Assembly: GCA_000165345.1 (NCBI GenBank)
Contig: CM000434.1
Coordinates: 832,001-896,000 of the forward strand
Reading direction: 5' to 3'
DNA: 64,000 nt
Below the pieces are notes generated by a model. That model was not told where the DNA came from. It made no database searches and worked only from the letters and a program-made list of their open reading frames with translations. Both the position numbers and the translations under genes were made by a program. Positions 3,260 through 60,836 of this stretch are shown piece by piece. The stretch's first letter is position 1; each line of letters opens with the position of its first letter.

Positions 3260-3675
3260 TTACTTATTACAATAAGAAGCAACAAAAAGATTTCAAGATT
3301 TGGTGGATTCTTCTTTATCCTAAATTAGATTACTTTTCCACTCTTCTTATATCATTCAAGTCACCCTGAACCTCATCAAACAATATATTCAATTTCCCTA
3401 ACTCTTTAAATCATTCAGCAAATTCTTTAATCCGCACTTCATCTATTATTGAAAGTTATACTTTATATGTTAATACAAGAATATTATTAATTAACCATAT
3501 TGGCGCCATAACTCCCCTTAGAAATTGAGAATATTTTTATTATAGGGGGAAAAATGGCAAAGTAAAAAAAAAAAAAAAAGTTATATACCGGTAATGACGT
3601 GTTAATTTTTTTTGAGAAATTATATTAAAAAAATAAAATTGCTTAAAAAGACCAGAATTATTATAAAAGGAAAAT
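3260..3675. promoter_or_regulatory. Divergent intergenic promoter region (myotubularin minus, Derlin plus)
   Basis: It contains the E2F-like TTGGCGCCA at 3500..3508, ATACCGGTAATGACGTG at 3584..3601 and an A16 tract at 3565..3580. The same motifs recur in other intergenic regions of this window. Confidence 0.4.
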
Positions 3676-4503
3676 ATGTTCAATGATTCATCTCCACAAG
3701 GTTGGTATAAGAACTTACCTCCAATCACGAGGAGTATCCTCACAATAACATTTTTTTCAACTTTATTAATAACTTTTGGTATGTTGAATCCATGGTATAT
3801 TCTCTTTGATTGGGAGTACATTTTTCGCAAGGCACAAATTTGGAGATTCCTCACAAGCTTCTTTTTTGTGGGTCCATTTAGTATTGGATGGATTATGAGC
3901 CAATGGATGTTTACATCATTTTCATCAAAATTAGAGAGAAGTGGGTCGGTTGGTTCCTCATCTGGGTCTTATTTGTATTTTATATTGATTTTAATGACAG
4001 GAATTAACATAATAGGTACTGCTTTTGATTACCCCACAGGAAGAAAAATTGGAGGCTCTTCATTGATTTTTGGTATAATTTATTACTGGAGTAAGAAATT
4101 CCCAACTTCTTTGGTAAGTATTTGGGGATTCACTTTGCAAGCTTATCAGTTACCATATGCATTGTTATTTTTGGATGTTTTGACTGGTAACTCTTTGATT
4201 GACGATTTGATTGGATTATTAGCTGGACATTCTTATTACTATATTAGAGATATTATATATGAGAATAACGCAAATAACTTCTTAGCCAGAACTCCAAAGC
4301 ATTTTGACAAATTTGTTGACTACTCTTCTTTACTGATTAAGAACTATGTCTATGACTTTTCATCTTTAAATGGCCATCCTAATGTAATTAACTATCCAAA
4401 TTCAAATGTAAATAGAGCTGGTTCTTCTTACAATCCATTTTCAGGAAACTCTGCTCAACCTAGAGCCTTTTCAGGAAGGGGATTTAGGCTGGGTTCAGAT
4501 TAA
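3676..4503 (+). CDS. Derlin (Der1-like ERAD membrane protein)
   Basis: The 275-aa ORF starts at an ATG. It has four hydrophobic segments and carries the Derlin hallmark WRFLTSFFF (WR motif). The C-terminus ends GFRLGSD, which matches from memory the GQGFRLGDQ tail of Derlin-1. Confidence 0.8.
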   Translation: MFNDSSPQGWYKNLPPITRSILTITFFSTLLITFGMLNPWYILFDWEYIFRKAQIWRFLTSFFFVGPFSIGWIMSQWMFTSFSSKLERSGSVGSSSGSYLYFILILMTGINIIGTAFDYPTGRKIGGSSLIFGIIYYWSKKFPTSLVSIWGFTLQAYQLPYALLFLDVLTGNSLIDDLIGLLAGHSYYYIRDIIYENNANNFLARTPKHFDKFVDYSSLLIKNYVYDFSSLNGHPNVINYPNSNVNRAGSSYNPFSGNSAQPRAFSGRGFRLGSD

Positions 4504-4851
4504 GCTCAGAAAAGTTGAACTAGAAGATATATAAGTTAGTATTTTCTTACCATAGTATGGCTTTCCTTTATTATTTTAACTGCTAGTTTATAAATCTAAT
4601 ATAATTTTACATCCTAGTTATATATGTATATGATTATTTCAATCGATAAGAATTTGAAGATACAGGAGGAGAGAAACAATGAAGAAGAAAAAGGTGATCG
4701 TTTTCTAGATAATTATTTAGTTGCTATTAGCCGAGTAGAATTTTGCATTGATAGTATTGATATATAAATAATTCAATAGATCTATATACCCAATTAAGGG
4801 AACACAAGACTCCATCGAATAAATTAACTACTCTCTTCATCAATCTTTCTT

Positions 4852-6120
4852 TTATACTGTCCTGGTAGCTTTTTCATATAAAACATCAACGACATTTGAA
4901 AGATTGTCGAATGTAGAGATAAGTTCAGGAATCTTTAAATTAGAATTCTGATTCTCATCATAGATAGTAAGAACTTCAGTTCTTTGATCAATATTTCCCT
5001 GAATCAACTTGTTTAAAATCATTTCAATAACCTTGGAATAAACTCTTTCGGAAGAAAGATTGAGGAATAAAGCAAGTTGAGAGATTTCAATGTGTGAATA
5101 AGATTCCAAAATTCTTAAAATATTCTGTTCCATCAAACTTTCATACAAGTTATTAATATGTCTGTGAATGACCATATCACTGCTTAACTCGGTTTCATAA
5201 TTCTTTAAAACATCCTCGAACATACTAAGAGATCTATTTTCGCAGCAAGATGCAACCATTCTCAAGGCTTCAATCTCTCTCATCTGGAACTTAACTTTAT
5301 TTTTACCAGAAAGTAGAGAAGCTAAATTATTGGTTTGTTGGGACATGATCTTTGATAACAACATATACTTTAATGATTGCAAGGCTCTTTCATCATTTGC
5401 AATATTAAATGCCTCGAAAGCTTCATAAAAGTACGAGAATGATGTCTTAAAATCTTCTTCATCAGCAAGTATAATGCCAGATTGTAGATCTATATCAGCC
5501 TGTAAGAGAGGAGGACAGTGAATGGAGTTTGCATTAGTTCTAGCTGCTGTCAAAGCTGCCTTAGACTTGGGTAAGTTACGAATTCTATACTCAAGTTTAC
5601 TTTCTATCAAATAAGCCTCCACTAATAGAATCTTATCGTCAACCTTTTTAACTTCTTTAATCAACTTTTCAATATAGTCTAAACCTTTAACAAATTGACT
5701 AGAGTTCAAATAAACCATTGCTAAACGAGCAGTAATTCTATGTCTCAAGAATGTACGCTTCTCTTCTAAGCACCATTCAATACACTCCAAACAAAGTTGT
5801 TCTTGTAGTTTTTCGGTATCTGGAATTTTTGACATCATATCCATTAGATTTCGAATAATCTTTGCAACTCTAGCTTTTGGTAGTCCACCAATTATTGGTC
5901 TAATAGTTTTAATAAGCTCTTTCAATTCATTTGCCATGCCTTGTTTCATATATATTTCTCCTAATGTATAGATTGCCTGCTCTTGAATTTTGGTTCCATC
6001 TTCTATTTCATCCAAGTTGTCTTTTTTAATCAATTCGATTAATATTGGAATTGATAATTTGAAGTCTGTCTCCATCAGAGACTTTGCCTTCTCAAAATCA
6101 TCCTTAATACTTATTTCCAT
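4852..6120 (-). CDS. 26S proteasome regulatory particle non-ATPase subunit Rpn6/PSMD11 (PCI domain)
   Basis: The 422-aa ORF starts at an ATG. It aligns end to end with Rpn6/PSMD11 as I remember it. Matching motifs include LCLECIEW, LPKSKAALTAARTNANSIHCPP, QSGIILADEEDFKTSFSYFYEAFEAF and LKYMLLSKIM, and the C-terminal PCI region ends VVDVLYEKA. Confidence 0.85.
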   Translation of the reverse strand: MEISIKDDFEKAKSLMETDFKLSIPILIELIKKDNLDEIEDGTKIQEQAIYTLGEIYMKQGMANELKELIKTIRPIIGGLPKARVAKIIRNLMDMMSKIPDTEKLQEQLCLECIEWCLEEKRTFLRHRITARLAMVYLNSSQFVKGLDYIEKLIKEVKKVDDKILLVEAYLIESKLEYRIRNLPKSKAALTAARTNANSIHCPPLLQADIDLQSGIILADEEDFKTSFSYFYEAFEAFNIANDERALQSLKYMLLSKIMSQQTNNLASLLSGKNKVKFQMREIEALRMVASCCENRSLSMFEDVLKNYETELSSDMVIHRHINNLYESLMEQNILRILESYSHIEISQLALFLNLSSERVYSKVIEMILNKLIQGNIDQRTEVLTIYDENQNSNLKIPELISTFDNLSNVVDVLYEKATRTV

Positions 6121-6376
6121 TATTACTACTCACTCAATCCCTAGTTTGTTTTTCTTTCTTCCTTTCAAATAAGGAGGGTGGCTTTTGGTGAAATCAAAAT
6201 TTGAATTTGTCGCACCTTCTTACTTGTCAAACTTTAAGAGTTGATTCTCAAATTAATGTATGAAATTATTAATTTAAAAAAAAAATTGTCGTTTTAAATA
6301 ATAATTTTGTATTTTTCCCCCTTTATTATTATGTTACAATTATTCTCTTCTTGAACTTATTAGCTTAGATGCATAT

Positions 6377-6388
6377 TGGGCGCGCCCA
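6377..6388. promoter_or_regulatory. E2F-like palindrome TGGGCGCGCCCA in the Rpn6 / 6583-gene divergent intergenic region
   Basis: It is a perfect GC palindrome inside an otherwise AT-rich spacer. Confidence 0.35.
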
Positions 6389-6582
6389 AATAACCCCACG
6401 AAATACATAAATGTGCTGTTCAATGAATATCGAAAATAGATTAACATGCCAGAATAAATGTGATATTATAACTTTAGCTTCATTGAATAATTTGAATACG
6501 AAATGTGTCATTATTATTATTGAATTATATTGAAAGTTTGCTATAAGTGTTGTATGTATAAATATTTTGATGAAAAAAGAAA

Positions 6583-7588: not shown

Positions 7589-7735
7589 AACACTAGAAAT
7601 TGTCGAACTTGGTCTTTTACCAACATTTAATATTATTTGTCTACTTCAACTTTTATTTACTCTTTTTTTAATTATTAATACTATTTCTATTTCAAAAATA
7701 TTTTGTCCACATGAAATTTATTAATTTTCACACAT

Positions 7736-7849
7736 ACCGGTACTAAATATTTCTGATGACGTGTATAATTTTTTTTAATAAGTTTGCATGTGGAAATTGT
7801 CATACCGGTATATGCAATTACTATTATGTGTGGAAAAATTGCATGTAAG
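7736..7849. promoter_or_regulatory. Motif cluster ACCGGT x2, TGCATG x2, GACGTG
   Basis: ACCGGT occurs at 7736..7741 and 7804..7809. TTTGCATGTGG is at 7793..7803, GACGTG at about 7759 and GCATGTAAG at 7841..7849. The cluster lies about 520 bp upstream of the AAMP-like gene. Confidence 0.35.
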
Positions 7850-25593: not shown

Positions 25594-26180
25594 CTTTATA
25601 ATTCACCTTGATAACTTCAAGTTCATTAAATTTTCATATTATTTGCAGTTTATCTTAATCCAATTTAAATAGTAAATTATCTCATTAATCAGACTTGGAC
25701 TCTGCCTATGAGTTTATTACTTTATTTGATTTCTGAATAACTCTATCGGTGTGTTCAGTTTAATGTTATTGAATTTATTTCAATAGTGTCATTTCAAAGT
25801 TCTGGCACCTAGCTCCTTATAATAGCAAGCTGTATTAATCTTTTTGAAAATGTCTTATTAATTACTGCTGAAATACTAATAACCCGTTTTATTCAACTAA
25901 ATTACCTTATTAAAATTAAATTTCTTTCCTATTTCATTTATTAACATCGCCTTCACCATTAAACTCCCCCCATGTCGGTACCATAAAATAGCAATTTTTC
26001 CGCTCATTAATTGTAAAATTAATTTGCCCACATTAATTTGACAAAAAATTTCAAATCTTTAAATTAATTTACCATTTTTTGTTTTTAATTTAATTTCTTT
26101 AATAATTTTTTTTTTAACCTTTTTAACCCAAAACAATACAATTGCAATATAAATTGTCCACATTGAAAAAAAAAATTTAT

Positions 26181-26284
26181 TGCATGCATGCAATTTACAC
26201 GTAAGATTAAAAAAAGTGTGCATGTGGATGAATAACAATTGAACGAAGCTAATACCGGTATGTGAATTTTACATATTTACGTGG
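26181..26284. promoter_or_regulatory. Motif cluster TGCATGCATGCA, ACACGTAAG, ACCGGT, TACGTGGG upstream of the giant ankyrin gene
   Basis: TGCATGCATGCA is at 26181..26192 and ACCGGT at 26254..26259. ACGTG elements are at about 26199 and about 26279. Confidence 0.35.
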
Positions 26285-35222: not shown

Positions 35223-35294
35223 GGGGTTATCCGGGAATCGAACCCGGGACCTCATGTACCCGAAACATGAATCATACCACTAGACTAACAACCC
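35223..35294 (-). tRNA. tRNA-Pro (anticodon CGG)
   Basis: The reverse complement is GGGTTGTTAGTCTAGTGGTATGATTCATGTTTCGGGTACATGAGGTCCCGGGTTCGATTCCCGGATAACCCC. The acceptor stem GGGTTGT/ATAACCC has one G-U pair. The anticodon stem is CATGT/ACATG with loop TTCGGGT, giving anticodon CGG. The T-arm is CCGGG-TTCGATT-CCCGG. The D-arm GTCTAG(T/G)GGTATGATTC matches the conserved eukaryotic tRNA-Pro D-arm as I remember it. Confidence 0.85.
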
Positions 35295-36318: not shown

Positions 36319-36430
36319 CTCAAATCTTTGCTCAAATTAAAATTTATTCAGAAACAAAAGATGAAAGTATAATCATTAATGATTTTATTTTTTAAAAAAT
36401 TATAACGTATTCCCGCCAAAATTCGTCAAT

Positions 36431-36558
36431 TGCATGTAAGTCGTCCACAAAAATGCATGTAAATACCGGTTTATGAAAAAATGTGTATGACACGTGTATA
36501 TCAATTTTTTCAAAAAAAAATAGTGGGTATGACATCATAAATAGAAGCAGTTGCATGC
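36431..36558. promoter_or_regulatory. Divergent promoter motif cluster (TGCATGTAAG, TGCATGTAAATACCGGT, ACACGTG, TGCATGC) between P5CR and the mucin-like gene
   Basis: ACCGGT is at 36465..36470, ACACGTG at 36490..36496 and TGCATGC at 36552..36558. Confidence 0.35.
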
Positions 36559-36906: not shown

Positions 36907-39900
36907 ATGTTTACAGGGAGTGACTTGAAAAACTTAGTATTGAAAACTCTATTATTATTGCTACTGGAATACCTTATCATCAACTTTCCAGGAGTCTCAT
37001 CAATTGATGAAAAGGTTCAGGAAAGGAAAGATGATCCAGTAGCACATATGGACCCTGCCCCACCAATACTATTTAAGGAAATGAAAAGTCCAATTGTAGG
37101 AGTGGGTGATATTTGTTTTGGAAACAACTGTAACTATTACCAAGAAAGTAAAGAAAATAGTCCATCCAAAGACAGAGAAAGCTATCATTCAGTTGGTTCC
37201 AAAGTTACAAGGTATATATGTATATTATTATCAGAAAATACTTTTACTAGGGAAAAAGAGGCAGATTTGTTTTTTGAAAGATTAAATGAATATACAGAAA
37301 CTTCAGAATTGCCATTTTCATATGTTGAATTTTACGAGAAACTTGGAGTTTTTGTAATTGATGTTAGATCCAGTATTAAAGAGTATGAAGAACGCAGTAT
37401 ATTTCCCTTGGCTGAAGGTTTGAAACTTATCAAAAAGTTAGATATTTTAAACAAGGCTGACTGTACTAAAGATTCTCTTTTAAGTGAACAATCGGTATTT
37501 ACAAGTGGAAATGAAGATAAATCTACTGAGAATTACAGTAATAGCTATAAGTGGAATTGGAGCAGTATTCCTAATAATTTTGTAAATTTTAATCGAATCT
37601 TGAAATCCGAAGAGTCTCAAGGAAATATTACGAATAACAATCAAGGCACAGAATATTTAACAGATGAAGCAAAGCTATACAAAGAGTTGGATGGTTACTT
37701 TTTGAAAAAGTTCAATGAAGCATCTAATCTACTTAATAAACTAAATATGTTCTCTTCCCCATCCTCTTCATCATCAAATTTCAATAATCCTACTGTTTCA
37801 TCAACATCATTTTCCGGAGGGAGGCAATCTTCTCTTTGGAATGCACTCAACTTTTTATCCAGTTTCTCAAATAAGGAAGAAAAGTCTAGATCTACGCCAA
37901 TCCAGGAAATTGAAGATCCAATTTTTGGAAAAATGGACCCAACAGATGGTAATTCTAAATTAACAATATCTCCACTATACCTTCTTGGGATGAATCTCAA
38001 AGGAAAAAACATTACAGAGCTATCTCAAAAGTTCAAAAATCAAACATCTCCTATCGTTCCTGTAGATATGTCTAGAGAAGATATTAGCTTGGACAATGAT
38101 CTTGCAATGAATATAGCAACAGTAATCTTCAAAGGAATGAGTGATTCCGCTGCAAAGCTTCCACCTCCTTTTGGGAACCCTGCAGTCAAAAATGAGCAAA
38201 AGTTTCCAGAATATAATTACAAAAACCATATAAATTATCTTGAAACAAATGCAAATAATAACTATTATAATTCCCCATCAATCTCTAACTGGAGTTATAA
38301 ACCCATACCACAGGGTAACAATAATGTAATTGGTGGATATGAAAATGACCAAAGCCAACTCAATATTCAAAGTGATCACTTTAAAGGAGGAAGTTTTCAT
38401 CCAAGTTCAAGTAATAATGCTATCAATACAATTGATAATTCCATTATTGGATTTAATAGTGTTTCTCAAGTTAACTCAAATAGTAATTCTAATAAAGTAG
38501 GAGTTCATTCTCAATCTGGTTCTGGCTTAGCTCCAAATATTTTTGAATCAATAGATACATGGGGAAAACAGAGCTCAGCTTATCAATCAACTTCTTCTTC
38601 CGCCTCCCCTCCATCATATTATGCAACAAATGGTATTAAAACTATTAATCCAAATCAAGTGACTTCTAATGGAAAGAGTAATCCTGATTTAAAAGTACCA
38701 ACCATTAATTCTCCATCAACTTCAGAATGGATGAGAAAGACTATTTCAAAGCAAAATGAGGGTGGGATAAAGCAACCGTCATTTATTAACAGTCAAAATA
38801 ATCAAACAGAAATTAATAAATTTGCAAATAATATGAACCAAAATACCCCCCCAATTGTTAATTCAAATGGTAATCACTTTAATTCTCCATTTTCACAGCT
38901 TTCAAAGTTTTCTAACAATCCATTCCATGGAAATTCTGCCGGAACAACATTTGTCAAAATGAATGGTAGTGTTTTTGATGATGATAATGATATCACTTCT
39001 TTCCATCCTGAAGGATTTATCAATAAACTTCCAGAACATGTACAAAAGAATATGACTCAATCTCAAAGAGACAAAATTAACTTAATAAATGCATTTATTG
39101 GTACTGGATTTGATACAATTCTTCAGATGAATAATATAGATTCTAGTTCAAGTTATGGTAATCAGAATAATGATTTCTTTAGAAGTTCTCCTCCAAAAAG
39201 AAGATTATTTGAGATTGACTCTTCAACAAGAGGAAACAAAATGGTGATTGATGAAAACATGAAAGACCCGAATTTAAGTGATCAATCAAATAAAGAATAT
39301 GAAATGTATGCCAAATTGCTGAGTAATATTGATACGAACCAAGGTCAAGATACTGCAATGGCCTATGTGACAGGATGTGATTGTGATAGATTTCCTGAAG
39401 GAGTTGCATGTCCCATGGTGCTTTCAGGAGAAGCGAATATTGAATGTATTGGGTATAAAGTTTGGAATAGTGCAAGAAAAGGTGCTCCATTGAGTGAGAT
39501 AGCTTCAGCAATAGATTCTGCAATTACTTCTAAAGCAAGAAATATTATTTTGCCTTTAAAGTTTGATACAAAGACAATTGAAGAAAATCGAGCAGCTCCA
39601 AGAATTTTGAGGCACATCATGAGAAGAACTTCAAGAGAGAATGGAATACTATTTGCCTTACCAACAGGAAATAATGGTAAGCAGGAGTTGGATGGAAGCT
39701 TAGACTTTCCTTGCGACGATTTGACAGGAATGTACGCTTTTTGTGTGGGTTCAATTAACAACAAAAATGGAATGCCTTCGAGTTTTTCCAATGTTCCTCA
39801 GTTAAATAATGCAATCTATGCTAATGGTGAGGATGTTGAATCAATTGGAATAAATCAACAAAGACGATTATTTTCTGGTACCGGTATTGCTTTAGCTCAA

Positions 39901-42900: not shown

Positions 42901-43716
42901 GAGAATATTGTAGCAAAGTATATTAGAGTCCATTTTCCTCAAGCAGGAAACTTTTCAAATATGACAATGGTAAAACTATTAAACAAAGAGACTAAGAGAG
43001 AATTTGCAGCAAAAATGATTAATGAGGAGGAAATACCAAAAAACAATACTATTGAGGATGTATTAATTGACGAGAATTCAAATTTTGAGTATCTTGGTAA
43101 GGTAGAGATAGTTACTCAAGATGAAAATGATGAGGACTACTCAACTATTAAATATGAAAATACATCAATTATTTCTGATAGAATGGGAGTTGATATTGAA
43201 AATAAGGATGTTATTTTCAGTCATCTTATAAAGTCAAGCAACGAAAGTAAAATATACAAAGAACCTTTGCTTTTAGATAAATATCAACCAGATTTTACAG
43301 GTGAATCATTTCCTGAATTCAAGATGGAGAAAGTTGTAATTCCTAATGAAAAAAGTACTGAAAATGAAATATCTCAGAGTTTTAATAAAGATTACAACTC
43401 TGAATCAAAATTAGGAACAAACGAAAAAAAAGAAAATTGGAATAATCACCAAAATGAAAATGGAGATTTGGATGAATATGAAGACTTATACTACTATGGA
43501 TTTGAAAATGATTATGGAAGCAATCATAGCAAGAATCAAATTAGTGACTTTATTCCTTTCATTTCAACCAATAACAAGAAAAACAAATGGGAAGTTCAAA
43601 TAAACAAATCTTCTGGAGATAATAGAAATATACAATATAAAATAACCAAAAAGAATATTCTTTTATTTATATTTGCTTGTTATACTCCTATAATTCTCAT
43701 GTTTGGTTTTATTTAA
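36907..43716 (+). CDS. Giant secreted mucin-like glycoprotein (about 2270 aa) with Thr/Pro tandem repeats, a PAN/apple-like Cys domain and a C-terminal hydrophobic (GPI-signal or TM) tail
   Basis: It is an uninterrupted ORF. The real ATG is at 36907 (the track starts at a TTG), followed by a signal peptide, LVLKTLLLLLLEYLIINFPGVSS. A poly-Thr run, TTTTTTTTSPVSTTTS, is followed by eight or more TTNPPSSI-type repeats. A Cys-patterned block, CYEEETRFYSPLEMAIPVDNIEQCILSCSNTPDCRYYSYGAFL..GTCILM, fits a PAN/apple fold. There are many N-glycosylation sequons. The terminus, ILLFIFACYTPIILMFGFI, is hydrophobic. Confidence 0.65.
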   Translation: MFTGSDLKNLVLKTLLLLLLEYLIINFPGVSSIDEKVQERKDDPVAHMDPAPPILFKEMKSPIVGVGDICFGNNCNYYQESKENSPSKDRESYHSVGSKVTRYICILLSENTFTREKEADLFFERLNEYTETSELPFSYVEFYEKLGVFVIDVRSSIKEYEERSIFPLAEGLKLIKKLDILNKADCTKDSLLSEQSVFTSGNEDKSTENYSNSYKWNWSSIPNNFVNFNRILKSEESQGNITNNNQGTEYLTDEAKLYKELDGYFLKKFNEASNLLNKLNMFSSPSSSSSNFNNPTVSSTSFSGGRQSSLWNALNFLSSFSNKEEKSRSTPIQEIEDPIFGKMDPTDGNSKLTISPLYLLGMNLKGKNITELSQKFKNQTSPIVPVDMSREDISLDNDLAMNIATVIFKGMSDSAAKLPPPFGNPAVKNEQKFPEYNYKNHINYLETNANNNYYNSPSISNWSYKPIPQGNNNVIGGYENDQSQLNIQSDHFKGGSFHPSSSNNAINTIDNSIIGFNSVSQVNSNSNSNKVGVHSQSGSGLAPNIFESIDTWGKQSSAYQSTSSSASPPSYYATNGIKTINPNQVTSNGKSNPDLKVPTINSPSTSEWMRKTISKQNEGGIKQPSFINSQNNQTEINKFANNMNQNTPPIVNSNGNHFNSPFSQLSKFSNNPFHGNSAGTTFVKMNGSVFDDDNDITSFHPEGFINKLPEHVQKNMTQSQRDKINLINAFIGTGFDTILQMNNIDSSSSYGNQNNDFFRSSPPKRRLFEIDSSTRGNKMVIDENMKDPNLSDQSNKEYEMYAKLLSNIDTNQGQDTAMAYVTGCDCDRFPEGVACPMVLSGEANIECIGYKVWNSARKGAPLSEIASAIDSAITSKARNIILPLKFDTKTIEENRAAPRILRHIMRRTSRENGILFALPTGNNGKQELDGSLDFPCDDLTGMYAFCVGSINNKNGMPSSFSNVPQLNNAIYANGEDVESIGINQQRRLFSGTGIALAQSIGALNIIQGITKDKTSSFDQLAILYSAPKKLPSRNFLEQLFANSSPITFKPQQQQQQFQKQSSRNETGSSDPVLMFGMGSGNNTNGALGSVSHERIMNSSLMSGNRDNDLDAIMARIESIEKSLAKSGLDGGTVFKGEFPVGGPFSSPSDSSTFSSSSTTTTTTTTSPVSTTTSNASTLTNITTEIPQILNYTNISSSSTSTPSISLNTSTPNIVTTLPSNITTNPPSSITTNPPSSIKTNPPSSIVTTPSSNIATNTPSNITTTTTTSPSRTPRASNPPLTENKEEEYGHYKESNYSPEIIGVVLDPKEVTEVSRLVHSSNEHYNEYYDRYGNHDTVDHEYENDDGYRQYYIDGNEDKNHNYGNTFNSEENMSRNLCYEEETRFYSPLEMAIPVDNIEQCILSCSNTPDCRYYSYGAFLKGPGSIIGTCILMPDKQGSVALPNFQSGALGCPVSASIAYAQAMEERLIQGISNANENSQKSSSAQVNNNLNSDWPGILSTSTVAVKSMSGFLSRFPLNDILQTSISLYNSGFLDQKGALRPSGAFEKQSILPPPGVGSPHVVCTLQGMQCCVPQKSAKGWRKKPPSFLRVEDPSCEAIYVSKTDMFCATTSLYDNQDISSSGYNSLDDFRSQPSFSSNSYSTNPKPSGSCGMVIIETSEHLIFQNTLKMPSKEMNNALCECKLNKRDKSIHGSGTWEYSVQAVQAAMSRKVEGDQLSSGVAQALAWVEAVGNDPNPAVNGLGELISQVAQRPNSDVELITQIPAISQNAVSNMLYNQQQQQIEEQEQIIKKQQSIQQYNNMRYLLSQNETDTNNANTQSQSDQCVTSWPEKCQIWKSKCEDNLIYGYKNPQCVPLTILENGCPMKQVGFKVNQINPGILSFSFKPMRFSDNSPFRIACQFSLIKCTLANIKSKCKSNGTNNFKKPKNLNGDDENNAINNIRKHLNNHKNQNNNKNNNLFHRKDTNDKSKNNELKHLFKIPMNYLPYIPKDTGESDEKSENIVAKYIRVHFPQAGNFSNMTMVKLLNKETKREFAAKMINEEEIPKNNTIEDVLIDENSNFEYLGKVEIVTQDENDEDYSTIKYENTSIISDRMGVDIENKDVIFSHLIKSSNESKIYKEPLLLDKYQPDFTGESFPEFKMEKVVIPNEKSTENEISQSFNKDYNSESKLGTNEKKENWNNHQNENGDLDEYEDLYYYGFENDYGSNHSKNQISDFIPFISTNNKKNKWEVQINKSSGDNRNIQYKITKKNILLFIFACYTPIILMFGFI
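40549..40700. repeat. Imperfect 24-nt tandem repeat (ACAAACCCTCCTTCCAGCATCACG)n, about 6 units, encoding TNPPSSI(T/V/K)T mucin repeats
   Basis: The repeat is read directly from the DNA, and the units diverge at third codon positions. An adjacent ACC/ACA/ACT Thr-codon run lies at 40375..40400. Confidence 0.8.
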
Positions 43717-43901: not shown

Positions 43902-43945
43902 GGTACCCGGTACCTTTTTTTTGAAAGAAATTATATATGCCGGTA
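43902..43945. promoter_or_regulatory. Palindromic GGTACCCGGTACC plus GCCGGTATATT
   Basis: There are two ACCGGT-type elements 30 bp apart, about 280 bp upstream of a candidate first exon at 44221. Confidence 0.3.
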
Positions 43946-44561
43946 TATTATTTAACGGTGTGAAGATTAGCAAGAAAACTTTTTTTTTATTTAGGATCAT
44001 GGAAACTTGAAAGATTTGAGTTTTAATAGAGAAACAGTCAAAGCAGCTTTTTTTTTTTCTTCCTTTTATAACTCTAACTTAAGACACCAATAAATGGTGG
44101 ATCTGGAAATAAATATATATTAATATATTTCGATAATTCACCCGAAGTAAAAATTTGAAAATGCTGAAAATTGATAGGCAAAATAAAAAAGGGGCCTCTC
44201 AACCATTAGAAAGAAATATTATGAAATGTTCTCCTGAAGTAAGTTTTGAAAATGAGTAGGAAAGTTGGAGAAATGTATTTATAAATGTTATATTATATGC
44301 ATTACCAATTCCTTTATTTATTTGATTTCAACGTTATTATTATTCTATTTATATAAAATTCAAATTTTAAATATTTAAATATTAGATTAATTTAAGTTCC
44401 TTTGCATTTTTATTTTCTGAAATGGTTCAATATTCCCTATCTTGCCTGAAACCAGGAATTAGGCTTGAAGATAAGTAAGTTGATAAAATATTGACTTTAT
44501 TACCTTTGATGGATTGCAAATTGTTAATTATTAACTCTTTTAAAATTAAAGACTTCATGAA

Positions 44562-47136: not shown

Positions 47137-47310
47137 ATTAATTACTTGATTTGATTATTCAGTTTTGAAGCTTTTTATATATTCTTGTAAAAAGAATTTC
47201 TTTTTTTTTTTAAAAAAAAAAATAACTTTTTTTAAAGAATTATTTAATTAAAACAAATGTTAAACTATTTTTTTCCACATGCATTTGTACAGCTCTATAA
47301 ATTTGTTGTA

Positions 47311-47391
47311 TACCGGCATTTTAACAAATTTGCATGCATACGAAGTGACGTGTCATTTTTTTTTAAATGACTAATCGACACGTATGTGGAC
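47311..47391. promoter_or_regulatory. Motif cluster TACCGGCA, TGCATGCATACG, GACGTGTC, ACACGTATG between the branching-enzyme and GYF genes
   Basis: This is a divergent spacer; each gene starts on its own side. Confidence 0.35.
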
Positions 47392-50520: not shown

Positions 50521-50669
50521 GGATCAAATATAGTTAAATATTTAAAATGATCATTTATCAATCTTTTTTTTTACTATTTTTGAATATTTCTTGTATATTA
50601 TTTAATGTATATAATTGTAGAATTTTTCTTTCCCCCCACATACACACACATGTGGACAAATAATTCAAT

Positions 50670-50739
50670 ACCGGTATTTCGTAATATGACAAAATTGCAT
50701 GCACATACGTGTAAAAAAAGTTTGCATGCAATTACGTGG
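50670..50739. promoter_or_regulatory. Motif cluster ACCGGT, TGCATGCACATACGTG, TGCATGCAATTACGTGG
   Basis: ACCGGT is at 50670..50675. TGCATGCA occurs twice, each followed within 10 bp by ACGTG. The cluster is about 700 bp upstream of the 51438 gene. Confidence 0.35.
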
Positions 50740-53533: not shown

Positions 53534-54324
53534 TTGGATAACTTTAAAAATAACAAGTTAAAAGGGCAAATGTTTATTTAATATTTTGAAATGTATAGTT
53601 TATCTACAGTACAGAGCTCATTGTTTGAGTGATGAACTTTAAGTCTTGGCTAATGGGAGAAGCAGGAAAGTCAGAACAGGAAACAAAAGATTTAACTTCT
53701 TTAGAAAATTAAAATCTTTTTATTAGACAGATTAGGATAACTATTTCAGATAAATGTTTATAAACACCCATAAATTCCAGTAATATTTATGGAGATACGT
53801 GGTAGTGGCGATATGGTTGGCGGGCCATAAGAGGAAAAGTTATAAAATAACTCAAAGCAGATAAGCCAAAGAGTTGTTAATTAAGAGCGGAAAGATTAAG
53901 TACAATAAAAAGAAATAGAAATTTATGTTAGATGATGGAACATTAGAATTAGGAAATGTGTTGATTCAGTTTAATTCCTTTAAATTTTTTAATATCAAAT
54001 TTGCATGTAAATTTTTTTTTTATCAAATAATTCAGTATCGATAATATATAAATTTATGCTTGGAATTTAGCCAAAAAGGCGCCAACCAGGCTTGCATGTC
54101 TCGTATTCGAGTATACTAAGGATAGTATATTATATTGGATATTGGGGGAATTAATAATATAAAAAAGATAGGCGCATGGACAGAGAGGATACTGCACACC
54201 AATATTGTATATATAAAGAAATAACCCACTTTATTTAGTTGAATCTTAGATAGATAAACTAATATTTTCGATATTTCTTAATTTTTTTTTTAAAAATTTG
54301 GAAGTGAAGCAAAACTTTTGCTAA

Positions 54325-55386
<1,062 letters not shown>

Positions 55387-55962
55387 ACTAGAACTTAAAG
55401 ATAAGTAAGAACGGAGTAAAACTTTTCGATACATAAACTCTCAAATTGGCATCATTTTATCGGCAATTGTTTTGCAAACCCTTTCAATGTCAACATGTTT
55501 TTCTCTGGCGCAAGCTACCATCTATCTCAATCGGATTTAAACATAAATGCCAACTTTCCCTGCTTCAAATCATCCTCTGCCACCACAGTTCTCTCGACTA
55601 CTCGTAGGGAAATACTGATGTTAAATTGCTAGCGTTGAAAGTGGTTCTTTGGGGGGTCCAGGGAGTTAGCGAGTTGTGTGTAAATGAACATTTACTACCA
55701 AGACTTACTATCGCATGCAGTTTAATCGCCTTTGAAGACTTTCTTCATTATTAGTGTCAAATAGTTTATTTCTCTGTTAATCGAAATGTTAATTACTCAA
55801 TTTCAATCTCAATTAGACCCTTTTTTCTCGAAAAATCGATCTGAGCTTTACTTCATTTAGTTTAATGTTTAGGAGCGAACTGTCCACATAAAATTAGTCA
55901 AGCATTACGTATATTGCTATTATGCTTTGCATGAATGGGGGGCGAAATAGTATTTTTTTATA

Positions 55963-56019
55963 CCGGTATGCAAGTGGAGTGCAAAGAAATTACTAATTTG
56001 CATGTTTTTGGCGCCAAAG
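55963..56019. promoter_or_regulatory. ACCGGT + TGCATG + palindromic E2F-like TTTGGCGCCAAA upstream of hexokinase
   Basis: ACCGGT is at 55963..55968, TGCATG at 55999..56004 and TTGGCGCCAAA at 56009..56019. The cluster lies about 215 bp upstream of the hexokinase ATG. Confidence 0.4.
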
Positions 56020-56234: not shown

Positions 56235-57791
56235 ATGGAAGAGGAAAATCAAGCCAAGAGGCTGTTTGATTTATATGAAGAATATTTTTTCCTTTCAAAT
56301 TTAAAGCTGCTGGAGTTGGTTGATGATTTTCACAAATCTTTAGAAGACGGACTTGAAAATCACGCAAATCGACTAAAAATTGACAAATACCATTCCAATT
56401 ACAAGCCTTTTAAAATGTTAGACTCTTGTGTTGATAGACTTCCAACTGGGAAGGAAAAAGGAGTTTATTATGCTATTGATATGGGTGGCACTAATTTACG
56501 ATGTGTTAGAGTAAATTTACTTGGTAATGGCCAAAGTGAAACAAAATTTAAAAAGGTTAAATTGTCAGAAATGAAAGTGTCTTCTACTGGGAAGGTTGTA
56601 AATAGCAACAAAATTTCCAAAGTTGATCAAGAAGTCAATATTTTTGATAAAACTGTATCTTCAGAAACAATGTTTAATTCAATTGCAGTTTTCTTTAATG
56701 AGTTTTTGGATGAATGTGGCGACTTAAATGATTTGACCAATGATAATAATGTAGGCAATCTCCCATTAGAAGTTGGCTTCACCTTTTCTTTTCCTATCGT
56801 GCAATCTAAAATTGCAAGTGCAAAACTGGTAATATGGACAAAAGAAATTGAAACAGGTAGATTAACTGATGATCCTGTTGAAGGAAAAGATATTGGTGAT
56901 TTATTGAATTTAGCCTTTAAAAGAAATGGAGTACCAGCTCAATGTAAATGCGTTTTAAATGATACAGTTGGAACCCTTATATCAGCAATGTATGATTTAA
57001 ATATTAATAATTATTGCGACAATAACCACTCTTTAAAAGTTAATTTTCCAAATAATATATCTGAAAATCAACCATTAATTGGAATTGTGGTTGGAACTGG
57101 AGTAAATGCTTGCTACCTTGAACCAAATTCTTCAAATTTTGGTTATAAAGGAGTTATTATTAATACAGAGTGTGGAGACTTTTATTCAACCAAATTACCC
57201 ATAACTGATTGTGATTACTCTATGGATTGGTTTAGTGATAATAGAGGAGAACAGATATTTGAAAAAATGATTAGTGGAACTTATTTAGGAGAAATCTCTC
57301 GGTTATTAATTATCAATTTTTTAAAAAACAAAACTCCAGAGATTTTCTTCCAAAAGAATTCATTAAAAACTGAACATATTGCCAAAATTATTAGCCATTT
57401 CAATGATAATCATCAAAAATATAACCAAAACCATGATTTAAAGTCTATTGAAAATTATTTAAAGGAAACATTTTCTTCAAATCTTGATCATAATTCCACT
57501 TATATTATTGCAAAAATATCACAGATGGTACTCATGAGAGCAGCATCTCTTGTCTCAGCCATTATTGCTGCATTTTTCAAAAGGTTTAATAAGCCACGCA
57601 ATCAAATTACCATTGCCATAGATGGATCAGTTTGGACTAAAATACCCAAATTCCAAAAATACGTTAAAGATTCACTCTCATCTTTGATTCAAGAGAGCGG
57701 ATATCTTGGCTCAATACATTTTTATGAATCAGATGATGGATCTGGAAGAGGTGCTGCTATTCTTGCTAGCACTACAGTCAATACACATTGA
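56235..57791 (+). CDS. HK: Hexokinase
   Basis: The hexokinase signature blocks are all present: AIDMGGTNLRCVRV (phosphate 1), LGFTFSFP, the sugar-binding LNDTVGTL, the connect block GIVVGTGVNACY, and INTECGDF. Confidence 0.9.
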   Translation: MEEENQAKRLFDLYEEYFFLSNLKLLELVDDFHKSLEDGLENHANRLKIDKYHSNYKPFKMLDSCVDRLPTGKEKGVYYAIDMGGTNLRCVRVNLLGNGQSETKFKKVKLSEMKVSSTGKVVNSNKISKVDQEVNIFDKTVSSETMFNSIAVFFNEFLDECGDLNDLTNDNNVGNLPLEVGFTFSFPIVQSKIASAKLVIWTKEIETGRLTDDPVEGKDIGDLLNLAFKRNGVPAQCKCVLNDTVGTLISAMYDLNINNYCDNNHSLKVNFPNNISENQPLIGIVVGTGVNACYLEPNSSNFGYKGVIINTECGDFYSTKLPITDCDYSMDWFSDNRGEQIFEKMISGTYLGEISRLLIINFLKNKTPEIFFQKNSLKTEHIAKIISHFNDNHQKYNQNHDLKSIENYLKETFSSNLDHNSTYIIAKISQMVLMRAASLVSAIIAAFFKRFNKPRNQITIAIDGSVWTKIPKFQKYVKDSLSSLIQESGYLGSIHFYESDDGSGRGAAILASTTVNTH

Positions 57792-57937
57792 CCTTTTTAT
57801 AGTCCATCCTACTTTTTTGTAATTTCATTTCCGGTCATTTATTGTTTATACTTATTGTTCTTATTCATTGAAAATAATAGTAATTAATTCATCTTATTCA
57901 GATTTGTACATGCCAATGTTCATAGAAATAACAAAAA

Positions 57938-57955
57938 TTTGGCGCGCGCGCCAAA
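57938..57955. promoter_or_regulatory. Perfect 18-bp palindrome TTTGGCGCGCGCGCCAAA (E2F-like), about 230 bp upstream of CFIm25
   Basis: It was read directly from the sequence and is the only GC-rich element in that spacer. Confidence 0.4.
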
Positions 57956-58184
57956 TTTTTATTTTATTTAGAATTTAAAGAATTTCAATATTAATTTAAG
58001 GTTTTATTCTCAATATTTTTTTTTTTTTAATTAATAAATACCTTTTAAAGTTTAAATAATCCATTTGTTTGAAGTTGGAGTCCATTCTTGGCAGATATTT
58101 CTGCATAGATCTTTTAGGTCATAATTAATTTTAATCTTTAATTGAAAGTATTTTTTATGCACATTTTTTTGAATCTTTATACAA

Positions 58185-59018
58185 ATGCAGGAGGGTTCGA
58201 ATAATGTTAGTAACAATCTGATGAACGATAATAAAATTGAGGAGGATGTTTTAGAGCAGCCAACATTTTTAACAAACCAAAGTCTTTTGAACGAAGAGCA
58301 GAGTATGGCTACAAACGTTGATCATGAACCATCATGGTTAATTTATCCATTGAAGAATTATGGAATTCGAGTTCAAGATAATAGTGACGAAATTCAATCA
58401 AGTATCCCAATTAATGAAATGAATGGGTTTAATGTAAAGGTTGATAACTTTTTAAAAGATGGAATTGGACGTAGCGTTGCTGCATTAATGCTTACTCATC
58501 GTTATTTATGTCCACATGTAGTTTTACTTCAGAATGATTTAACGAGTGAATGGATGCTTCCAAATTGTACTTATAAGGCCTGGGAAAATCCTCGCATAGT
58601 ATTAGCAAACTTTTTAAAGTCAATGTTCCTTACAAGTTCGAGCATTAATAGTAATACTAATAACAGTGGAAGTAATAATGGCAATAATAATAGCTCGACA
58701 AATAATAACAATATAAATAATGCTTGTTCTGATAATGCAGTGGAAGTTGGGGAATACTTGGGAACTTGGTGGAGAACTGAGTTTAATTATTCTCCTTTGC
58801 CTTATTTACCTCCCCATTCAACAAGGCCCAAAGAAACAATAAGGATTTACCAGGTTATTCTTCCTCCAAAATTGCTATTTAAATTACCAAAGCACCATGT
58901 GTTAAAGAGCTTACCTCTGTTTGATTTGGACCCAAATATATTTGGAATAGCATGCGGTAGTATTCCCCAGCTTATTTCAAGATTTCAAATTCAATCAATG
59001 GTTCAGTCGGATAATTAG
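58185..59018 (+). CDS. Cleavage factor Im 25 kDa subunit (CPSF5/NUDT21, Nudix-fold mRNA 3-prime processing factor)
   Basis: It shows block identity to CFIm25 as I remember it: IYPLKNYGI (LYPLTNYTF), GRSVAALMLTHRYLCPHVVLLQ ([21 protein letters not shown]), GTWWRTEFNYSPLPYLPPHSTRPKE ([25 protein letters not shown]) and LPLFDLDPNIFGIACGSIPQLISRF. An Asn-rich insert is present. Confidence 0.8.
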   Translation: MQEGSNNVSNNLMNDNKIEEDVLEQPTFLTNQSLLNEEQSMATNVDHEPSWLIYPLKNYGIRVQDNSDEIQSSIPINEMNGFNVKVDNFLKDGIGRSVAALMLTHRYLCPHVVLLQNDLTSEWMLPNCTYKAWENPRIVLANFLKSMFLTSSSINSNTNNSGSNNGNNNSSTNNNNINNACSDNAVEVGEYLGTWWRTEFNYSPLPYLPPHSTRPKETIRIYQVILPPKLLFKLPKHHVLKSLPLFDLDPNIFGIACGSIPQLISRFQIQSMVQSDN

Positions 59019-59141
59019 AATTTATATTGAAAAGTTATTTTATTATTAGTAAAAGAAATAGATTTTGCTACATAATATTTTATATTATTCTCTTTTTGAT
59101 CGATTATGATAATAATCAATTTATTATTTTTATTAAATATA

Positions 59142-60545
59142 TTAATAAATAATAAATAGTAGCAGGCTGAGGATAATGGTTATTCCAAATGTAGCCATTT
59201 TAAGAACAGATTCTGAATTGGATGATAATGAGATGAACATAGGCCCATATTTACTATGTTTTGCCAATGTGAAGCCCACCATTAGGTTATCTCTATCAAA
59301 TATTGAGTAGTACTTTCGAATGAAGTTATTTCCAAGTACAAAAAGTGGACCTCTAGGAGCTGGAATATCAAGAGGGATATATCCAATGCTACAATAATGT
59401 TCTTGCGGGCCCCAATAATAGCTAAAAGCATTAAATGATGAAGGCCCTCCTTCATCAATTACATAGTCTTGAGGATCCATATGCATTTCTATCTCATTTC
59501 CATGAATATCTTCTATCACATAAGTTATTCTAGGAGAAGATAGATATCTATTACATTCTCCCTCCATGGGTATAACTTTGGTGATCTTTCTCATAAAACT
59601 ACTTGGGGCTGTGGAGACAGATGAACCAGTATCTATAGCTGCCTTGCAGTCCCCGAAGCAATAGTTCGTGCTAACCCCATTAATCTTTATATCTTTGATC
59701 TTGATTTCCCAGTAATGAGACCCAGTAAGTCGATGCCAGGTTATTTTTTGACCACTTATTGTGTATTTAGGATCAGCAGCTCCAAAAGAAATTGAACCTG
59801 GAGTACTTGAATCTCTGGAAATGTAAACTCCAAAAAGATTTCTTGGTAAAATGTTTCGTTCTTTAATATTCTCAACAATTGTTGGGATATTATTTTTTTT
59901 ACTGTTCTTATCTGGAAATCCAAGTCCTACCAAACCATCGAATGGTAATTCAGCAAAAGGAGATGTACTTTCCTCAATAGCCATCCCGAAAGACTGATCT
60001 TCTATCTTCAGCTTTCCAATATTTATGACTTCTTTACCAAACTTTAACACACAAGAACCCGTACCATATTGGATATATGTCTCCAATGATCCATCCCCCA
60101 ATTTTTGATAAGAGGTACTCAACTTTGGATCATACTTGTTGTGGGGCTCACAACCTTTATGCTTACATTCAATACTTGGAATCCATACACTGGAGCTTCC
60201 TGTATCAAAAATGACAACGAACTCTCTTGGAGGCGTTCCCACCTCAATTTTACCAAAATATTGACTATTTTGGTAATTTCTAAGATCCTGAGAGTCCATT
60301 GTCTCTGAATACTTACTCTTGGTAATCCACCTTGAAAAATAGTTGCCTTCTGAATATTTCATTCCTCCCTCAGATAGACTTAATTTTAACTCAACTTTTT
60401 GAGCATTTGAATTAAATAAGCCATTACTTAGTATAGCCTCCATTCCTAACTCTGCCCTAGCATTTGACCTAATCTTGTTTGATAATCCTTCACAAAAAGC
60501 TGATATTTTCAGCATCATTAAAATAAAAAACACTTGAAACACCAT
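59142..60545 (-). CDS. Pepsin-like (A1 family) aspartyl protease with signal peptide and C-terminal TM anchor
   Basis: Two catalytic motifs are present, FDTGSSSVWIPS and IDTGSSVSTAPS. A signal peptide, MVFQVFFILMMLKISAFC, is followed by a pro-segment, and there is a C-terminal hydrophobic tail, TFGITIILSLLLFIIY. Confidence 0.85.
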   Translation of the reverse strand: MVFQVFFILMMLKISAFCEGLSNKIRSNARAELGMEAILSNGLFNSNAQKVELKLSLSEGGMKYSEGNYFSRWITKSKYSETMDSQDLRNYQNSQYFGKIEVGTPPREFVVIFDTGSSSVWIPSIECKHKGCEPHNKYDPKLSTSYQKLGDGSLETYIQYGTGSCVLKFGKEVINIGKLKIEDQSFGMAIEESTSPFAELPFDGLVGLGFPDKNSKKNNIPTIVENIKERNILPRNLFGVYISRDSSTPGSISFGAADPKYTISGQKITWHRLTGSHYWEIKIKDIKINGVSTNYCFGDCKAAIDTGSSVSTAPSSFMRKITKVIPMEGECNRYLSSPRITYVIEDIHGNEIEMHMDPQDYVIDEGGPSSFNAFSYYWGPQEHYCSIGYIPLDIPAPRGPLFVLGNNFIRKYYSIFDRDNLMVGFTLAKHSKYGPMFISLSSNSESVLKMATFGITIILSLLLFIIY

Positions 60546-60791
60546 CTTGTATGTTGCACACTACTACGTTAAACTCTCTTTTATTTTATTTTGAATCTCA
60601 TTAGTTCTTTACACTTTAATTTCTCTTTAATTAATGTTTGTTTCAGAGTAGCTCCTACCTATATTGATGATTTGCAATTACTTTATTTTATTATTATTAT
60701 ATATACATGTAAATATTTACATATATATCTATATATATTTTTTTTTTGGTTTGAATTACATGTAATTATTGACTTTTCATGTTTTTTTATT

Positions 60792-60836
60792 TGCATGTAA
60801 ACACCGGTACGTGGCCTCTAGCAATAACCACGTAAT
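60792..60836. promoter_or_regulatory. TGCATGTAAACACCGGTACGTGG ... ACCACGTAA motif cluster in the aspartyl-protease / Rab1 divergent spacer
   Basis: ACCGGTACGTGG is at 60803..60814, flanked by TGCATG and a second ACGTA element. Confidence 0.35.

Follow-up and report, generated by a model that had tools for sequence, protein, structure and literature searches.

A palindromic ACCGGT element and its partner words in gene-upstream spacers of Cryptosporidium parvum chromosome 6: a candidate cis-regulatory module

Introduction

In a 64-kb window of Cryptosporidium parvum chromosome 6 (positions 832,001 to 896,000 of contig CM000434.1), which is the whole stretch of DNA analysed here, the palindromic hexamer ACCGGT is enriched in non-coding DNA, clusters with other over-represented words and is under purifying selection. 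Its extended form, the 10-bp palindrome ATACCGGTAT, is probably the site of a sequence-specific Cryptosporidium DNA-binding protein and a component of a flexible module located in the spacers upstream of genes. Gene control in Cryptosporidium is poorly understood. The accepted cis-elements are few, comprising the E2F site, TGCATGCA, the G-box, CACACA, GAGA, CAAT and a handful of unassigned words, and for most of the DNA-binding proteins predicted no site is known. A palindrome enriched like the E2F and AP2 words and retained as far as C. muris could serve as bait for finding a missing regulator, and the module could be used for building or tuning promoters in transgenic parasites and would offer a testable handle on combinatorial ApiAP2 control. 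The finding is useful and moderately surprising to specialists: conserved factor sites are a known type and the kind of mechanism is not new; few such sites are known in Cryptosporidium.

The hexokinase open reading frame (ORF) of the window (56235-57791) has 518/518 identity to cgd6_3800 of C. parvum Iowa II, the RPN6 ORF (4852-6120, minus strand) has 422/422 identity to C. parvum cgd6_3590, and the gene order is also seen approximately 885 kb along C. parvum chromosome 6 assemblies; the window therefore spans roughly cgd6_3570 to cgd6_3840. It has a G+C content of 30.6% and carries dense long ORFs, mostly without introns. About 72% is coding, and the non-coding DNA amounts to 18.0 kb (28%) in 33 segments, as defined by a coding mask which was built from ORFs and cross-checked against the gene calls of syntenic loci. 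These loci were anchored on hexokinase, RPN6 and a 2330-amino-acid (aa) ankyrin protein and were taken from C. meleagridis, C. ubiquitum, Cryptosporidium sp. chipmunk genotype I, C. canis, C. felis, C. muris and a species represented by a public read set, designated Logan species below.

Enrichment and consensus of the ACCGGT palindrome

The exact hexamer occurs ten times in the window (3587, 7736, 7804, 16370, 26254, 36465, 39880, 50670, 55962 and 60803), compared with a mean of 1.57 and a maximum of 5 in 100 dinucleotide shuffles of the same DNA. Nine of these copies are non-coding, where an order-1 model of the non-coding DNA predicts 0.60, corresponding to an approximately 15-fold enrichment; the only coding copy (39880) stands against an expectation of 1.04, which is chance level. 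Seven of the nine non-coding copies read TACCGGTA and five of the nine form the perfect decamer ATACCGGTAT. Among the non-coding 8-mers, ACCGGTAT (13 observed, 0.13 expected) and TACCGGTA (7 observed, 0.06 expected) rank with the E2F word GGCGCCAA and with TGCATGCA as the most enriched. When the flanks of 39 non-coding sites from ten Cryptosporidium loci were scored as 78 half-sites, T was found at position -1 in 58 and A at position -2 in 50, and the consensus of the 39 sites is the 10-bp palindrome ATACCGGTAT.

That the hexamer has no function and owes its distribution to base composition, to CpG behaviour, to a decayed dispersed repeat or to chance can be regarded as practically excluded. 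Such an account could appeal to the small number of independent sites (nine in the window), but none of the 100 shuffles reached the observed count, the order-1 expectation is 0.6, and both the clustering with partner words and the conservation in orthologous spacers, described below, are far above background. A general CpG or CCGG effect was ruled out because, among the 16 palindromic NNCGNN hexamers, only GGCGCC, CGCGCG, ACCGGT and CACGTG are enriched, in contrast to TCCGGA, GCCGGC and the majority of CG palindromes. The copies were also considered as remnants of a dispersed repeat or mobile element, which was rejected: the sites belong to no family of direct or inverted repeats, and their flanks share short words only.

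Known structured RNAs were likewise dismissed as a source of the modules, an Rfam scan of the window having returned two tRNAs only, away from the modules. These are tRNA-Gln(ttg) at 163-235 and tRNA-Pro(cgg) at 35223-35294, both on the minus strand, and a TACCGG at 191 falls within tRNA-Gln.

A preliminary description of the window, made from the letters alone, had counted ACCGGT in at least 11 spacers. Eleven spacers are reached if variants are included, whereas the exact hexamer is present in eight. Four of the positions that it listed (18531, 43902, 43940 and 47313) carry one-base variants, namely CCCCGGTACC, ACCCGGTACC, TGCCGGTATA and TATACCGGCA, respectively; the site placed at 55963 starts at 55962; and the sequence at 63400, reported as an ACCGGT within a coding sequence, is a different one, the true coding copy at 39880 having been missed.

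Clustering with partner words

The association of ACCGGT with other words was evaluated against a null model in which nine sites were dropped randomly in the non-coding DNA in 5000 trials. TGCATG lies within 50 bp of eight of the nine non-coding sites (0.99 ± 0.92 for random placement), and the same holds for ACGTG (0.81 ± 0.86); both words are found within this distance at seven of the nine sites (0.41 for random placement), and none of these values was reached in any of the 5000 trials. The proposal that the co-occurrence is tighter than chance is thereby borne out, and the effect is local, going beyond a shared intergenic location. The accompanying claim that nearly every copy has both words nearby holds for the exact sites to the extent just given and fails for the variants at 43907 and 43940, which have neither. 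TGTGGA or its complement TCCACA is present within 100 bp of seven of the nine sites, compared with 1.74 expected. This fourth word, (A)TGTGGA(C/A)A or TGTCCACA, which usually appears as ATGTGGAC/A, is enriched in non-coding DNA (7706-7834, 26223, 50651 and others), with CATGTGGA occurring eight times there against an expectation of 0.20. ACATGT is also found near some of the Cryptosporidium ACCGGT sites, and the spacers with ACCGGT or a variant of it contain 25 of the 32 non-coding TGCATG words of the window. At least three distinct over-represented motifs are thus found within about 150 bp beyond chance, as in a heterotypic cis-regulatory module.

The arrangement of these words is flexible. 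TGCATG is located on either side of ACCGGT at offsets of -43 to +49, ACGTG is 6-37 bp away, and the word order relative to the flanking genes varies, so that the fixed architecture suggested in the preliminary description does not hold. The spacing in orthologous spacers, which had been named there as a check, is constant between orthologous copies but varies between loci; the constant spacing and order between loci that would characterise a rigid composite element were not found. The nearest ACGTG points away from ACCGGT in eight of nine scorable independent modules, a marginal bias (two-sided P of about 0.04) that hints at an interaction.

E2F-type words (GGCGCC/GGCGGG) showed no association with the nine non-coding ACCGGT sites (P of about 0.2). 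A mutual exclusion of ACCGGT and E2F was considered and is not borne out, an E2F word being present within 100 bp at four of the nine sites, though E2F-only spacers exist. In the spacers 6121-6582 (RPN6/249-aa gene), 12826-13473 (351-aa gene/Ank), 57792-58184 (hexokinase/NUDIX) and 62093-62250 (Rab/SET), E2F-type words occur without ACCGGT, TGCATG, ACGTG or TGTGGA, which suggests an 'E2F-only' promoter type alongside the composite-module type.

Conservation in other Cryptosporidium species

Non-coding ACCGGT is found at 4- to 25-fold its expectation in every other locus fetched, and coding ACCGGT is at expectation. The observed and expected non-coding numbers are 3 and 0.24 in C. ubiquitum, 5 and 0.24 in chipmunk genotype I, 3 and 0.16 in C. 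meleagridis, 4 and 0.45 in C. canis, 2 and 0.5 in C. felis, and, for two loci of C. muris, 2 and 0.17 and 4 and 0.21. The enrichment thus extends to genomes of 41-46% G+C and to C. muris, a distant gastric species.

Seven of the eight sites checked (the non-coding copies other than that at 36465) are kept at the aligned position, exactly or as ACCGGC, in species with 65-85% protein identity. Exact conservation amounts to two of three sites in C. canis, compared with 5% of the spacer 6-mers, to two of three in C. ubiquitum (14%) and to three of three in chipmunk genotype I (23%). This rate is similar to that of the E2F and TGCATG words, and the element is, as expected of a cis-regulatory module, conserved above the surrounding spacer. 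Together with the non-coding enrichment and the clustering, this retention in orthologous spacers supports the earlier description of a cis-regulatory feature.

In the aligned spacers, the sites fall within conserved islands. At the individual sites, TATACCGG[T/C]AATGACGTGT is retained around 3587 in C. meleagridis and C. canis, and C. canis keeps the ACCGGT at 7736 along with its ACGTG, GTCCACATG and CATGTGGA. The neighbouring site at 7804 is the poorest, with only AACCGGTA in C. meleagridis and loss from C. canis. The site at 16370 is part of a conserved block, in which C. ubiquitum has kept the hexamer (ATACCGGTT) and C. canis has ACCGGC (ATACCGGC); at 26254, ACCGGTAT is retained in both of these species. 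Around 50670, TGTGGACAAATA..ATACCGG[T/C]ATTT is found in C. ubiquitum, chipmunk genotype I and the Logan species, with ACCGGT in the first two and ACCGGC in the third, and the same spacer of C. felis has TACCGGTATTT. At 55962, chipmunk genotype I has kept ACCGGT, and both C. ubiquitum and the Logan species have ACCGGC; here, the whole 150-bp island containing the module is the conserved portion of an 850-bp spacer that is otherwise poorly conserved. At 60803, C. ubiquitum, chipmunk genotype I and the Logan species are identical over a block of about 40 bp. At 47311, C. parvum shares the variant ACCGGC with C. ubiquitum and chipmunk genotype I; the Logan species and C. muris have the exact ACCGGT there, and ACCGGC therefore seems to be a tolerated form. 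At the variant site 18527-18559, CCGGTACCT is retained in C. ubiquitum, where (ATGC)n stands; the region is not alignable in C. canis.

The position of conserved sites relative to the flanking genes changes little. DER1 and its ACCGGT are 89 bp apart in C. parvum and 102-103 bp in C. canis, and the distance to the aspartyl protease gene is 258 bp in C. parvum, 251 bp in C. ubiquitum, 271 bp in chipmunk genotype I and 322 bp in the Logan species. Turnover is also seen. In C. ubiquitum and others, ACCGGT is present before GAPDH and in the spacer at about 28.5 kb before a 210-aa gene (loci L001, 7816; L002, 7771/7795; L014, 7001), and the C. parvum counterparts (TTGGAAT and ACAGGTAT) are decayed within otherwise conserved blocks (window positions 53534-54366 and about 28500). 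Turnover of this kind is expected of factor binding sites.

Placement relative to genes and alternative explanations

The exact hexamer is present in 4 of 7 divergent, 4 of 14 tandem and none of 6 convergent spacers, eight spacers in all. The copies are thus located upstream of genes, often in divergent spacers, as had been noted before, and share with cis-regulatory modules the location in non-coding DNA upstream of genes. Since many of the module spacers are divergent, the modules possibly belong to bidirectional promoters. Counted to the next ATG downstream, the distance is 89 bp at DER1, 258 bp at the aspartyl protease gene and 273 bp at the hexokinase gene; other values are 275 bp, 442 bp and, for three sites, 660-760 bp. 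The sites at 26254 and 50670 are situated 85 and 150 bp past the upstream stop codon, a placement kept in four other species. The range of ATG distances and the two sites behind stop codons disfavour an element at one fixed place before the gene.

These distances bear directly on the idea of a core-promoter element or an element positioning the transcription start site (TSS), in which ACCGGT would be read by the basal machinery or by a start-fixing factor at a set distance from the TSS. With about one copy per 7 kb of the window, the motif is frequent enough to mark a quarter or more of the promoters, its position relative to flanking genes is stable between species at DER1 and the aspartyl protease gene, and a palindrome would suit bidirectional promoters. 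A core promoter element would, however, be expected at a narrow distance from the start codon and at most promoters. Across loci, the next ATG downstream is anywhere from 89 to about 760 bp away; about two thirds of the non-convergent spacers are without ACCGGT, including E2F-only ones before RPN6 and NUDIX; two copies (7736 and 7804) are only 68 bp apart; and the sporozoite 5' open-chromatin peaks are reported to be dominated by E2F, the top three holding no other motif except poly-T. We therefore consider this explanation improbable.

The two sites behind stop codons, together with the variant in a convergent spacer (18529), could instead point to a chromatin boundary or to the site of a general regulatory factor comparable in role to yeast Reb1 or Abf1. 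Such an abundant protein would keep spacers nucleosome-free and separate neighbouring transcription units, and in this highly compact genome it would act past the 3' ends as well as before the 5' ends of genes. Conservation of the placement of 26254 and 50670 in four other species, the palindromic and thus orientation-independent site, and neighbouring genes that are spread over many expression clusters are in line with such a role. On the other hand, none of the six convergent spacers has an exact site and many spacers have no site at all, and the tight link to the stage-linked ApiAP2 word TGCATG, as opposed to spacers in general, fits a regulatory module better. A boundary function is, in our estimate, about as improbable as a core-promoter function.

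It is less probable still that the module serves as the promoter of antisense or intergenic long non-coding RNAs (lncRNAs) instead of neighbouring protein-coding genes. Antisense lncRNAs of C. parvum mostly start close to a gene's 3' end, E2F and TGCATGCA motifs are enriched in the 100 bp upstream of them, and bidirectional promoters are suspected (PMC7840661); the modules at 26254, 50670 and 18529 adjoin 3' ends. Yet most modules are located in divergent or tandem spacers before protein-coding genes, 89-450 bp from the ATG, and a MEME analysis upstream of 396 lncRNAs gave E2F/DP1 and ApiAP2_1 as the top two motifs and named no ACCGGT motif (PMC7840661). Moreover, promoters of lncRNAs would be a special case of the explanation favoured here, the site of a sequence-specific DNA-binding protein within an upstream module, and not an alternative to it.

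A predicted binding site within a flexible module

The symmetric 10-bp consensus, the restriction to non-coding DNA, the selection with turnover and the tight but flexible clustering fit the site of a dimeric DNA-binding protein. The core ACCGGT, with ACCGGC tolerated on one side, would be bound by a sequence-specific protein for which the symmetry of the site suggests binding as a dimer. This protein would act combinatorially in a promoter-proximal module, a flexible unit of about 50-150 bp in which ACCGGT may be combined with the ApiAP2 site TGCATG(C/T)A, with an ACGT-core word, (TG)ACGTG(T/G), and often with (A)TGTGGA(C/A)A. The module would mark a subset of promoters, some of which also have E2F sites. 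We infer that a transcription factor reads the palindrome, cooperates with the binders of TGCATG and ACGTG and affects transcription.

As regards the genes concerned, modules flank the genes for hexokinase and glucan branching enzyme and, in other species, GAPDH. Clusters associated with TGCATGCA are enriched for glycolysis and polysaccharide metabolism according to the literature, and in a 2025 study based on the assay for transposase-accessible chromatin with sequencing (ATAC-seq), E2F motifs dominated the open chromatin of sporozoites and AP2 motifs were not seen. Both the metabolic clusters and the occurrence of E2F without AP2 in sporozoites fit a regulated subset of promoters. The genes for hexokinase and the aspartyl protease, both of which adjoin modules, share cluster 112 of 200 (Oberstaller et al. 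2013), a hint at co-expression of module neighbours.

Several observations weigh against this interpretation. The sample consists of one 64-kb window and about 200 kb of mostly orthologous loci, as opposed to a whole genome. The sites at 26254 and 50670 are near stop codons and distant from the next ATG. The spacers of C. muris and C. felis are too diverged to align (background 6-mer conservation 0.4-1.5%), and conservation in these species means the presence of ACCGGT in the same spacer only. Other module-adjacent genes, among those listed, belong to clusters 14, 42, 50, 80, 90, 98, 115 and 122, the division into 200 clusters being very fine. Finally, ACCGGT was not reported from published searches of C. 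parvum upstream regions by MEME, AlignACE and FIRE, which sought cluster-specific over-representation; this is odd for a word so enriched.

Relation to known regulatory motifs

An ACCGGT motif was not found in the C. parvum motif literature searched (PMC3734150 with its supplement, PMC4117751, PMC1779779, PMC7840661, PMC12246861, PMC10233709 and a 2025 preprint on ATAC-seq and polycistrons), in agreement with the earlier supposition that it is less well characterised than other promoter words. It is not among the 25 motifs of Oberstaller et al. (2013), whose supplement has CCGG only within E2F-like words, it is absent from Mullapudi et al. (2007), from the 2021 analysis of lncRNA promoters and from the table of a 2025 review, and the ApiAP2 array study of C. 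parvum (2014) names no motif of the ACCGGT type in its main text. Full-text searches for ACCGGT or CCGGT together with Cryptosporidium returned primers only.

The closest match lies outside the Apicomplexa. In oomycetes, motif M94 of Phytophthora infestans is TACCGGTA (Roy et al. 2013, PMC3597505), motif-9 is GTACCGGTA and was found upstream of 1,284 genes (Seidl et al. 2012, PMC3520976), and streme-5 of Plasmopara halstedii is ATACCGGTAT (PMC10031896). M94 belongs to the 'high-confidence' motifs of P. infestans, a class defined, for example, by conservation between species, positional bias or palindromy (PMC3597505). The oomycete and the Cryptosporidium motif are the same palindrome throughout the 10-bp ATACCGGTAT, both are over-represented upstream of genes and conserved in relatives, and both are orphan promoter motifs. 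P. infestans also has a sister palindrome, TACATGTA (M93), and Cryptosporidium has ACATGT near some of its sites. In contrast, oomycetes are stramenopiles and not apicomplexans, their motif is tied to infection-stage and effector (RXLR) genes, and partners of the TGCATG and ACGTG type are not described for it. The identity raises the possibility of a shared old regulator; the resemblance could also be convergent. As a tentative and on balance improbable extension, ATACCGGTAT may be an ancient element common to oomycetes and Cryptosporidium, spanning stramenopiles and alveolates, and read by homologous dimeric factors. With ApiAP2 proteins bound to TGCATG and a protein bound to ACGTG, the Cryptosporidium factor would set apart a second large class of promoters beside E2F/DP (perhaps a quarter or more of the genes, if extrapolated from 8 of 21 non-convergent spacers) controlling stage-regulated genes, including those of carbohydrate metabolism.

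Within Cryptosporidium, ACCGGT may be compared with two established types of element. The AP2_1 motif TGCATGCA, which is bound by the ApiAP2 domains of cgd2_3490, cgd1_3520 and cgd8_3230 in C. parvum and of PF14_0633/AP2-Sp in Plasmodium, is likewise a short palindrome, conserved and strongly over-represented in the non-coding DNA of Cryptosporidium, and it adjoins eight of the nine ACCGGT sites; unlike ACCGGT, it has binding proteins and is on every motif list, and its sequence is another. An assignment of ACCGGT as a variant of AP2_1 (TGCAT core/BGCATGCAH) was rejected because the core is not shared with TGCATGCA, which is merely a neighbour. The E2F/DP sites ([C/G]GCGC[G/C], TTTGGCGGGAAA) resemble ACCGGT in having a GC-rich palindromic core with CpG, in ranking as top-enriched non-coding words and in being conserved in orthologous spacers. 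They differ in that they are not preferentially found near it, and several spacers have E2F without ACCGGT, TGCATG and ACGTG; as the GCGC core is absent and there is no spatial association with E2F words, ACCGGT was not classified as an E2F/DP site.

Grainyhead/CP2 proteins of animals and fungi recognise AACCGGTT, which has the same central hexamer and dyad symmetry. The flanks T-ACCGGT-A argue against such a site, position -1 being T in 58 and A in 10 of the 78 half-sites, and we know of no CP2-domain protein in alveolates. ACGT-core elements, such as the plant G-box/ABRE (ACGTG[G/T]) and ATF/CREB-like TGACGT, are read by bZIP or bHLH proteins; they resemble the partner word (TG)ACGTG(T/G) of the module and not ACCGGT itself. 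FIRE has identified CACGTA/TACGTG in three expression clusters of C. parvum, one of which includes cgd6_3770, a gene adjoining module 6. The TGTGGA partner fits A[T/A]G[T/A]GGA.A, an unnamed motif upstream of some (class II) oocyst-wall genes (Oberstaller et al. 2013).

Individual modules and variant sites

The modules, variant sites and the coding copy of the window are compiled in Table 1.

Table 1 ACCGGT modules, variants and coding copy in the 64-kb window (words in the order in which they occur, where an order is given)
Feature	Coordinates	Spacer or ORF	Motif content	Position relative to genes
Module 1	3585..3602	Divergent, myotubularin / DER1 (cgd6_3580)	ATACCGGTAA, directly followed by TGACGTGT; without TGCATG	89 bp before DER1 ATG
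Module 2	7706..7845	Tandem, 249-aa gene / WD40 gene	ACCGGT sites at 7736 (ATACCGGTAC) and 7804 (ATACCGGTAT), 68 bp apart; TGACGTGT at 7759; TGCATG at 7785 and 7840; TCCACA/TGTGGA at 7706, 7789 and 7829	
Module 3	16298..16426	Divergent, Ank-670aa / 575-aa thioredoxin/OST3-like gene	TCCACA, TTGCATGCA, CACGTA, ATACCGGTAT (16368-16377), GGCGGGGCCCCAC, ACATGT, TACGTA	
Module 4	26157..26283	Tandem (-,-), 2330-aa ankyrin gene / 407-aa gene	TCCACA, (TGCA)3, CACGTA, TGCATGTGGA, ATACCGGTAT (26252-26261), TTACGTGG	85 bp past stop of 407-aa gene; 661 bp before ATG of 2330-aa gene
Module 5	36412..36496	Divergent, P5C reductase (cgd6_3720) / 2269-aa gene	CCCGCC, TGCATG, TCCACA, TGCATG, ATACCGGTTT (36463-36472), GACACGTGT	
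Module 6	50632..50738	Tandem, cgd6_3760 / cgd6_3770	CCCCCCAC, CACACACA, ATGTGGACAAATAATT, ATACCGGTAT (50668-50677), TTGCATGCA, ACGTG, TTGCATGCA, ACGTG	150 bp past stop codon of upstream gene
Module 7	55883..56015	Upstream of hexokinase gene cgd6_3800	GTCCACAT, TTACGTAT, TGCATG, GGGGGG, ATACCGGTAT (55960-55969), TGCATG, TTGGCGCC	ACCGGT 273 bp before ATG
Module 8	60792..60833	Divergent, aspartyl protease cgd6_3820 / Rab-type GTPase	TTGCATGTAAACACCGGTACGTGGCC...CCACGTAA	258 bp before protease ATG
Variant module	47274..47390	Divergent, glucan branching enzyme / cgd6_3760	TATACCGGCA (47309-47318) with TCCACATGCA, TTGCATGCA, TGACGTGT, CACGT	
Variant site	18527..18559	Convergent, 228 bp, between two 3' ends	CCCCGGTACC with CACGTGCATGCG	
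Half-site variants	43902..43949		GGTACCCGGTACC and ATATGCCGGTATAT; TGCATG and ACGTG partners absent	
Coding copy	39880..39885	2269-aa ORF	Sole coding ACCGGT, without partner motifs; chance predicts one	

The half-site variants probably fall outside the module class. They were found as GGTACC-C-GGTACC and ATATGCCGGTATAT in the spacer that follows the 2269-aa gene, at a distance of 30 bp from each other. The convergent spacer with the variant site (18373-18600) contains promoter-type words (CCGGTACC, CACGTGCATGCG and GGCGGG) and may be an antisense-RNA promoter. In the spacer between the aspartyl protease and Rab genes, about 200 bp (60750-60960) are near-invariant in C. ubiquitum, chipmunk genotype I and the Logan species, and the rest of the spacer is far less conserved; the block includes an inverted pair of E2F-like words, GGCGGTAA...TTGCCGCC. 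Runs of (TGCA)3, which are overlapping TGCATGCA palindromes, are located at 26181-26192 in module 4 and at 63257-63268 within the SET-domain ORF.

An additional module, an independent instance outside the window, is situated just beyond its left end in the spacer between TsaD and RNase PH (L006, 19800; L008, 19324; L009, 19729; L010, 19757). In C. meleagridis and C. canis, it reads TTGCATGCA ... ATACCGGT ... TCCACATGTAA ... TTACGTGT, and in C. muris the remaining words are ACCGGT and CATGCATG only. Within the 2269-aa ORF (36907-43716), seven tandem copies of a 24-nt unit (40518-40709) are located in the most G+C-rich part of the window (37.8%) and may encode a repetitive low-complexity protein segment.

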